A program made the position numbers. Positions 6,001 to 9,000 of a stretch of 23,710 nucleotides of DNA are shown here, in pieces. Numbering within the stretch: position 1 is the stretch's first letter; each line of letters opens with the position of its first letter. This DNA comes from a virus (Duplodnaviria; Heunggongvirae; Uroviricota; Caudoviricetes), in IMG/VR virus record IMGVR_UViG_2851949629_000009, positions 1-23,710 of that record; one strand, written 5' to 3'.

Positions 6001-9000
6001 GTCGTCTCATGCCGCCCTCCTGACGCCCTGCCCGATCGCCATCAATGCCGCTTTGGATACGGTAGTAAACATCCGTCGAGGACTGATGAACGGTCGCCAA
6101 ATCAGCAGCATGGAGCCTTTGCTGTTTCCCTTCTTCTCCAACCCCGTCGATGGTTCGATAAAATTAATCCGTCCATCAGTGATGATGCGAACTTCGTCAA
6201 CACTCTCCAGAGCCTTACTGAACCATCCTACAGACATATCCTCTGGCACAAGCATCACTACCGTCTGTCGCTGTTGTATGCACTGCTCAGCGGCTTTTTC
6301 CACCCACGGCCTGATATTGCTGTACGGTGGGTTATTCCAGATTGCACCGTGGCTTACCCACTCAGAATTGAGCGCGTCGTCGGCCTCAGTTAACCAGTGA
6401 GCGCACAGAGCATTTTTGTCGCTCGCTGCCGAATCCAGCCAGAATCCAAACTCAATATCCAGTGCATCAAAAAGCCAAAGCGGCGTTTGCCAGCAGTCCT
6501 TGTCGTGTGCTGGCGTATTTGATTTGATAGTCATGCAGCCCGATCTCCCCATCGCGCTTTCCATTCGAGAGCTAGTCGCGCTTCGTCTGACCACTTAACG
6601 CCACGCTCTGTACCGAATGCCTGTATAAGCTCTAATAGCTCCGCAAATTCGCCTACACGCATCCTGCTGGTTGACTGGCCTATTACCACAAAGCCATTCC
6701 CGGCAAGGTTAGGAACAACATCCTGCTGCTTTAATGCTGCGGTAAACACACACTTCCAGCTTTCTGCATCCAGCCAGCGACCATGCCATTCAACCTGACG
6801 AGAGACGTCACCTAAGCAGGCCCATAGCTTCCTGTTTTGGTCTAAGCTGCGGTTGCGTTCCTGAATGGTTACTACGATTGGTTTGGTTGGGTCTGGAAGG
6901 ATTTGCTGTACTGCGTGAATAGCGTTCTGCTGATGTGCCGGAGATCGAATTTCAAAGGTTAGTTTTTTCATGACTTCCCTCTCCCCCAAATAAAAAGGCC
7001 TGCGATTACCAGCAGGCCTGTGATTAGCTCAGTGATGTAGATGGTCATCTTTTAACTCCATATACCGCCAATACCCGTTTCATCGCGGCACTCTGGCGAC
7101 ACTCCTTAAAAATTAGGTTCGTGCTCATCTTTCCTTCCCGTTCTTCCTTGGTAGCAAACCGGTAATACACCGTTCGCCAGACCTTACCTTCGATAACCAG
7201 AAGACCTGCCCGTGCCATTTTAGCCGCGGCCTGATTTATGCTGGTTACTGTTGCGCCTGTTAGCGCGGCAACGTCCGGCGCACAGAAGCTATTATGCGTC
7301 CCCAGGTAATGAATAATTGCCTCTTTGCCCGTCATACACTTGCTCCTTTCAGTCCGAACTTAGCTTTGATTTCTGCGATCTTCGCCAGAGCCTGTGCACG
7401 ATTTAGAGGTCTACCGCCCATGACAGGAAGTTGTTTTACTGGTTCAGGGATCGCCTCACCACGGTTAATTCTCGCAGTCATATGGACAAGCTCATCTGCG
7501 GCCTTACGGCGTAATTCCGCATCAGTAAGCGCATTGGCCCGCATGTTCTGATACAGGTTGGTAACCAGCCAGTAGTGCGCGTTTGATTTCCACGGATAAG
7601 ACTCCGCATCCGGATACAGGCCTCGCTTCCGGCAATACTCGTAAACCATATCAACCAGCTCGCTGACGTTTGGCAGTCCGGCGATAACGGATGCTTCTTC
7701 CCGGCACCATGCAACAAACTGCCCGGGTGATGGCAGAAATGGTCGATTCTGCCGACGGGCTACGCGCATTCCTGCGTTAACCTGTTCCATTGTGGTGATC
7801 CCGTTTTCCCGGAAAGCCAGAACCCACTGGCGGCGGATTTCGTTCAGTTCGTTCTGGTCACGGTTAGCCAGACTCGCCGGGAAAGTTGCCAGTAACTGGC
7901 TGAACACACCGTTGATGATCTGCGCTACCTGCTGTACCTGCGGCTTTTCGTCGTACTGTTCCGGCATGTTGTTGGCGATCCGACGCATCTGCTCACGGTC
8001 AAAGTTAACCATCTGTGCGGCGATGTTTTTCATAGATCCACCCCGTAAATCCAGTCTGTGTTTGTCAGGTCGAGTTTTGGTTTGCTGGCTGTCACGACTG
8101 CCTGTTGCTTGTTACGGTTGATTTCGAGCTGGGTCCACTTGTCGCGGAGTTTGGCCGGGCTAAGCACGTTACCGGACCAGAAGTTGTCCTGGCATGCCCA
8201 GCGGAACAGCACGCACATGTCGCGGTGGTTACGTCCGTCACGTTCACGCATCAGGCGGATATCGTTAGCCCACCCAGCAAAATTCGGTTTTCTGGCTGAT
8301 GGTGCGATAGTCTTCACCATGTCAAACATCCACTCTGCGGCGGTCAGGTCTTCTGCTGTCCCCCACTTGCTGCCGCTCTGAATTGCAGCATCCGGTTTCA
8401 CCACAGAAAGGTCGTTTTCTGGCTGGTCAGAGGATTCGCCAGAATTCTCTGACGAATAATCTTTTCTTTTTTCTTTTGTAATAGTGTCTTTTGTGTCCCC
8501 CTGTTTTGAGGGATAGCAATCCCCCAATTTGAGGGATGTTTTATCCCTCGTTTTAAGGGATTTTCCCTCGTTTTGAGGGATGCACCATTCTGAGATGTTT
8601 TTATTTGGTCCAAACATGCCGCATTGCTGCTTGATAATATTCATTCTGACGAGTTCTAACTTGGCTTCATTGCACCGTTTGACGGGTAACTTTGTAATCT
8701 CGCTAAGTTGAGAATCGGTGATTCTGTCCATTGGTTTATTCCACCCATAGGTTTTACGCAGAATGGCAAGCAGCACTTTAAACTGTCGCTTGGTCAGATC
8801 TGCGCCTGAATAAGCCTCAAGCAGCATATTTGATAGTCTGGCGTAACCATCATCGAGATCTGCCACATTACGCTCCTGTTTGGCAAAGTTACCTCTGCAG
8901 AAGTTGAGTATTTTTGCTGTATTTGTCATAATGACTCCTGTAGATTGATCCAGTAATTACCTCAGAATTGCATATCAATTTGCTCAGAATCCTCGGTGGC

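Follow-up and report, generated by a model that had tools for sequence, protein, structure and literature searches.

Which enzyme is encoded by the gene that sits between ninB and ninE in a lambdoid prophage, what site does it methylate, and when could it act? The locus raising these questions lies in a stretch of 23,710 nucleotides from a virus of the class Caudoviricetes (IMG/VR record IMGVR_UViG_2851949629_000009, hereafter the window), and all positions given below are those of the whole window and not of the gene alone. We are highly confident that this gene, dam, encodes an S-adenosylmethionine (SAM)-dependent DNA N6-adenine methyltransferase belonging to the 'Dam' family of phages HP1, T1 and VT2, most probably producing G(m6A)TC, and that it is an orphan, delayed-early gene of the pR operon. 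The features on which this reading draws are collected in Table 1.

The dam gene, its family and its probable target

The reading frame runs on the minus strand from the ATG at 6534-6532 to the TGA at 6009-6007 and codes for 175 amino acids (aa). A GTG at 6594, the limit of the mechanical open reading frame (ORF), was rejected as the start; all of the aligned homologues (36/36) begin with MT(I/L)KSNT and the start is therefore placed at the ATG at 6534. The initial annotation had described an NPPY-motif methyltransferase at 6007-6534 and had proposed a domain search as a check. Both stood up well, with PF05869, TIGR01712 and the NPPY at residues 68-71 agreeing and the strand now given as minus. 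In the Pfam search the protein matched PF05869, 'DNA N-6-adenine-methyltransferase (Dam)', with 218.4 bits against a cut-off of 28.1 (E 6.4e-65), and the alignment extended nearly from end to end (residues 4-169 against positions 1-167 of the 169 in the profile). A match of 265.9 bits (cut-off 97.05, E 9.7e-80) was obtained to TIGR01712, the NCBIfam equivalog for 'phage N-6-adenine-methyltransferase', and PHROG 111 was matched as well. Pfam and NCBIfam both assign the product to the N6-adenine methyltransferases. The catalytic NPPY is invariant across 37 aligned family members, and so are F31, L33, D34 and A36 of the motif I-like segment FWLDSAAS, where residues 31-36 form a predicted strand in the AlphaFold model; a role of this segment in SAM binding is putative.

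Regarding the target, the closest known protein is that of phage VT2-Sakai, whose Dam enzyme was reportedly cloned in 2001 by Radlinska and Bujnicki. The product of dam is identical over its whole length (175/175 aa) to VT2-Sakai orf32 (NP_050531), the sole methyltransferase annotated in that phage and located there also between ninB and ninE. In a methylome paper on O111 Shiga toxin-producing E. coli (STEC) (PMC6602927), M.EcoVT2Dam of VT2-Sakai is presented as an orphan enzyme 'known to target 5'-GATC-3'', with reference to Radlinska & Bujnicki 2001. Carried over through the identity to orf32, GATC is most probably the target of the window enzyme too. At larger distance the protein is related to orf13 of phage HP1, annotated as a DNA methyltransferase (38% identity, E 1e-32), and to the methyltransferase of phage T1 (33% identity, E 2e-26), the record of which notes a similarity to the dam protein of phage HP2.

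The site itself is scarce in the phage DNA of the window (2800-11600 plus 14100-23710), where 40 GATC were observed against 87 expected under a second-order Markov model (ratio 0.46), the deficit being strongest in the pL arm (11 observed versus 43.5 expected). CTAG was similarly low in the phage DNA. The depletion of GATC, in what is a small sample, fits selection on this site. The genes flanking dam code for NinB, NinE, NinF, NinG, Ren and P, together with two ORFs matching only phrog_1511 and phrog_1258, and no nuclease is found among them; dam is an orphan (solitary) methyltransferase gene, with no cognate restriction endonuclease adjacent to it.

Table 1 Coordinates of dam, its motifs and the other features of the window
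Feature	Position	Strand	Remarks
dam, phage N6-adenine DNA methyltransferase, coding sequence (CDS)	6007..6534	-	175 aa, stop included; PF05869 E 6.4e-65, TIGR01712 E 9.7e-80
Catalytic motif IV NPPY, residues 68-71	6322..6333	-	read from sequence
Motif I-like segment FWLDSAAS, residues 31-38	6421..6444	-	putative SAM-binding loop after strand beta1
ATGA overlap, ninB TGA / dam ATG	6531..6534	-	read from sequence
ATGA overlap, dam TGA / ninE ATG	6007..6010	-	read from sequence
ninB (orf) CDS, upstream neighbour of dam	6531..6968	-	PF05772 E 2e-54; 100% identical to lambda NinB
ninE CDS, downstream neighbour of dam	5834..6010	-	PF05322 E 7e-44; 93% identical to lambda NinE
Intrinsic terminator between ren and ninB	6996..7019	-	8-bp stem, 6 GC pairs, T-run (terminator scan)
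pR-like promoter between cI and cro, presumed source of nin transcripts	9624..9651	-	consensus match only, 9/12
IS66-family element, 2541 bp	11611..14151	-	8-bp target duplication ACCTACCT; between nutL-like boxB and N
N-like antiterminator CDS	14194..14502	+	phrog_271 E 4e-39
Small class I SAM-methyltransferase-like CDS	19449..19943	+	GTG start overlapping upstream stop; motif I ILDMCCGS, motif IV-like DPPH

Ancestry and predicted structure

The term 'Dam-like' used in the initial annotation is appropriate for the reported GATC target of M.EcoVT2Dam but not for the ancestry of the protein. No Pfam match to PF02086, the alpha-class family of E. coli and T4 Dam, was obtained at E<=0.01, and sequence and profile searches of all PDB chains gave no match to 2G1P, 1Q0S or 2DPM at E<=1, nor anything significant for either methyltransferase of the window (the second one is described below). 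Membership in the alpha class was ruled out on these grounds. The MT-A70 or beta-class GATC enzymes (PF05063) were discarded also, there being no Pfam match and METTL3-14 appearing only at Foldseek rank 48 with a probability of 0.13. As far as sequence comparison can tell, dam of the window is a functional analogue of E. coli Dam and not a relative of it.

In the AlphaFold prediction (pLDDT 83.5, pTM 0.84; predicted local distance and template modelling scores, respectively) the protein consists of a SAM-methyltransferase core with no extra domain. The spacing from LDSAAS to NPPY is only ~30 residues, and this stretch is poorly ordered in the model. So modelled, the enzyme is a single-domain catalytic core without a separate target-recognition domain. 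Gamma-type NPPY enzymes come closest to the predicted fold, with a sequence identity of 9-18%, and the best structural neighbour of the model is the mRNA cap-specific adenosine methyltransferase CAPAM.

The ninB-ninE slot and its occupants

In lambda the slot between ninB and ninE is occupied by ninC, coding for a protein of 290 aa similar to 3'-phosphoadenosine-5'-phosphosulfate (PAPS) reductase, and by ninD. A three-way alignment with lambda and VT2-Sakai showed that the window is almost identical to lambda through ninB up to a shared GCATGA, follows VT2-Sakai after the ninB stop codon through the whole of dam, and rejoins lambda within the first codons of ninE. Such a pattern reads as a clean exchange of modules along gene borders in which both ninC and ninD were replaced by dam. 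The earlier proposal that dam replaces ninC was therefore right about the slot but incomplete, as ninD is gone as well, while the ATGA overlaps that it mentioned with ninB and ninE are real, at 6531-6534 and 6007-6010. Through these overlaps dam may be translationally coupled to both neighbours. Overlaps of this kind are general in lambdoid nin regions (PMC8022706) and therefore say nothing specific about the dam gene. Phage O276 is an example of a lambdoid phage that has kept a ninC-type gene in the slot.

Two other genes of this nin region are not found in lambda, one matching phrog_1511 (134 aa, 5430-5834) between ninE and ninF and another matching phrog_1258 (89 aa, 4999-5268) between ninF and ninG.

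The gene is widely distributed. In a protein search its product was found in 1908 of 50,697 phage records, 201 of them at an identity of at least 99%, and the cluster of the protein at 90% identity has more than 2300 member sequences. It is annotated with the same flanks in phages 434, SfI, VT1-Sakai, VT2-Sakai, E212 and many Shiga toxin (Stx) phages. At the DNA level, dam was present at an identity of at least 95% in 1565 of 5426 complete E. coli genomes (~29%), with up to five copies per genome, and these copies are annotated as 'phage N-6-adenine-methyltransferase' between NinB and NinE. With these genomes and hundreds of phage records at hand, finding dam in the ninB-ninE slot is not unusual; it is an already known, ordinary accessory gene of lambdoid phages in its usual place. 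No complete E. coli genome covers at least 80% of the window.

Operon setting and expected expression

The rightward early operon has the order cro (9365-9625), cII, O, P, ren, the terminator at 7019-6996 and the ninB-dam-ninE block. The sequence of this terminator, upstream of the block, is identical to that of lambda in the alignment and, by position and sequence, we take it to be tR2. Transcription of the lambda nin genes needs N antitermination to pass this terminator, and it is from this that deletions of the region took the name 'N-independent'. A promoter scan of the window gave no promoter-like site near dam. By analogy with lambda, we infer that dam would be transcribed from pR only after the loss of the repressor and, past the terminator, in an N-dependent manner, and no expression is expected while the lysogen stays repressed. 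This has a practical consequence for the comparison of methylomes between a lysogen and a cured strain that had been suggested as a check. Because the host Dam already methylates GATC and dam is expected to be silent in the repressed lysogen, such a comparison cannot reveal the activity of dam, and a dam- host is required.

At the slot beside cI, the position of rexAB in lambda, two overlapping ORFs were found (10424-11080), one of 174 aa on the minus strand and one of 120 aa on the plus strand. Pfam matched neither of them, and PHROG gave a weak match for the plus-strand ORF only (phrog_16322, E 1.7e-06). A bidirectional hairpin resembling a terminator follows at 11062-11077.

State of the prophage

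The IS66-family insertion sequence (IS) at 11611-14151 lies antisense in the interval between nutL and N, so that the boxB-like hairpin GCGCTGACAAAGCGC, at ~11450-11465, is on the other side of the element from the N start codon (14194). At this point a related Stx2a phage (LC616031) runs collinear with the window but has no IS, and the exact IS/N junction was found in none of the species-representative genomes of GTDB. The insertion should cut N off from pL, and it likely limits N and hence the read-through to dam. A second IS66-family copy, at ~283-2816, is 90% similar to the first, has the inverted orientation, lacks a target duplication and directly adjoins the tRNA-Thr gene downstream of Q. 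Bases 1-285 match DNA that in E. coli STEC388 is found at the edge of a prophage, amid fragments of tail-fibre genes. The genes for lysis, head and tail (morphogenesis) seem to have been deleted, a loss with which this second IS copy is associated, and the prophage looks like a defective, degraded remnant in which the dam ORF, itself intact, is probably a rarely expressed passenger.

Two tRNA genes, Thr-TGT and Asn-GTT, are on the minus strand at 2811-2965, just downstream of the Q-like antiterminator (3057-3545), at the site that in Stx phages holds tRNAs and the toxin genes. A few bases of the predicted tRNA-Thr gene are shared with the end of the IS.

At 16427-18517 the window has a recombination module of the P22 type, with an Erf-like annealing protein, SSB, an exonuclease and the anti-RecBCD protein Abc2, and not exo/bet/gam of lambda. 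Together with the lambda-type O, P, ren and ninB it makes up a typical lambdoid mosaic.

Proposed function and alternatives

Virions of lambda and P22 contain DNA that the host Dam has methylated incompletely, probably as replication outruns the enzyme (PMC8022706). In an intact phage, the product of dam, made only after repressor loss and N-dependent antitermination past tR2, would top up the GATC methylation of the fast-replicating phage DNA that the host Dam leaves under-methylated. The methylation so gained could shield the phage DNA from nucleases that act on un- or hemimethylated GATC, such as MutH or those of the MboI/DpnII type. Several points weigh against this picture. The biological role of phage dam is one that we infer, and the function of phage Dam enzymes has been called 'still not well understood' (PMC7556043). 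M.EcoVT2Dam was equated with orf32 by elimination. The domain has no recognition module with which to read GATC, and the PDB sequence and profile searches found no solved structure for the members of PF05869. Furthermore, at this locus, with N separated from nutL and pL and the late genes missing, a phage-protective role cannot currently operate.

Among the alternatives, the initial annotation had favoured anti-restriction or epigenetic cargo; acting in the lysogen, such a gene would be expressed constitutively and alter the methylome or the gene regulation of the host. Orphan phage methyltransferases in general can act in this way, and the undamaged ORF codes for the same protein as an enzyme reported active. 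Against it, dam lies inside the pR operon behind terminators of the tR1/tR2 type with no promoter-like site nearby, and the GATC sites are already methylated by the host Dam. Moreover, an O111 STEC strain with two extra identical copies showed no additional motif attributed to these copies (PMC6602927). We regard constitutive cargo as quite improbable. A different or relaxed specificity, for instance a nearly non-specific methylation of adenines in place of GATC, would go well with the lack of a target-recognition domain; relaxed specificity is known among small phage adenine methyltransferases (PMC7556043), and the non-specific M.EcoGI/GII are listed in PMC6602927. Yet the protein of the window is identical to an enzyme reported as GATC-specific, and is homologous to HP1 orf13 and to the T1 methyltransferase that has been likened to the HP2 dam protein, so that a departure from GATC appears very improbable to us. 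Finally, the position of CAPAM as top structural neighbour of the model would suit an RNA m6A methyltransferase and not a DNA enzyme, a reading to which we give hardly any credence. We retain the DNA adenine methyltransferase acting on GATC, expressed from the pR operon, as the preferred reading.

A connection with retrons was also considered. Phage Dam as the trigger of retron Ec86 was rejected, as the preprint concerned shows phage Dcm in this role and names Dam only as the earlier-identified trigger of another retron.

A second methyltransferase-like gene

The gene at 19449-19943 had been put forward as a possible second DNA-modification function of the prophage. Its product does resemble a methyltransferase, but that DNA is its substrate rests on annotation labels only and is unproven. 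It matches phrog_954, labelled 'DNA methyltransferase' (E 1.5e-88), its NCBI name is 'class I SAM-dependent methyltransferase', and the motifs ILDMCCGS and DPPH are conserved in 30 relatives. The Pfam family Methyltransf_11 was matched with 22.2 bits against a cut-off of 21.2, with no single stretch passing, and weak matches to Methyltransf_11/25 were found in 27 of the 30 relatives. A profile-profile comparison gave no relationship between this family and that of dam (probability 0.1). The AlphaFold model is poor (pLDDT 62.6); no Foldseek match was obtained below E 0.03 and no fold was assigned. The family has 7820 relatives and no curated model, and no characterised member was found. These relatives include proteins of Gordonia phages at 64% identity, of Streptococcus, Listeria and Porphyromonas phages at ~50% and of a haloarchaeal virus at 35%. 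Because of such strong conservation across unrelated hosts, the protein might modify a universal target (some fixed feature of DNA or RNA) and not a host-specific restriction site, although we consider this rather unlikely.

Comparison with known systems

As a discovery, dam carries little weight, as standard pipelines already annotate it and it is present in roughly three of every ten complete E. coli genomes. The useful outcome lies in the corrections, by which dam would be an analogue of Dam and not a relative, ninC and ninD would have been exchanged together, a lysogen methylome is uninformative and the prophage appears as a degraded remnant.

The classical Dam enzymes of E. coli and T4 and DpnM (PF02086) have no detectable sequence similarity to the protein of the window. 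In the E. coli/T4 family the motif is DPPY and a recognition domain interrupts the stretch from motif I to motif IV, whereas the window protein has NPPY and no such insert. The gamma-type enzymes with NPPY or NPPF, such as M.TaqI, HsdM of the type I systems or CAPAM, are proteins of 380-750 aa with recognition domains or subunits, in contrast to the bare catalytic core predicted here. NinC and NinD of lambda share with dam the slot between ninB and ninE and the ATGA junction to ninB, but the proteins are unrelated. The Dam proteins of HP1 and T1 are homologous to that of the window over the whole catalytic domain and share the layout WxTP...LDxAA...NPPY; T1 Dam differs in a 45-residue N-terminal extension and an insertion, and the genomic contexts of both are unrelated to that of dam in the window. 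By far the nearest system is M.EcoVT2Dam (orf32 of VT2-Sakai), with an identical protein, the same slot between ninB and ninE and the same 4-base overlaps. The two loci differ by a few synonymous changes in the DNA and none in the protein. It is the surroundings that set them apart, with O, P, ren and ninB of the lambda type in the window, and a degraded prophage around an intact methyltransferase gene.
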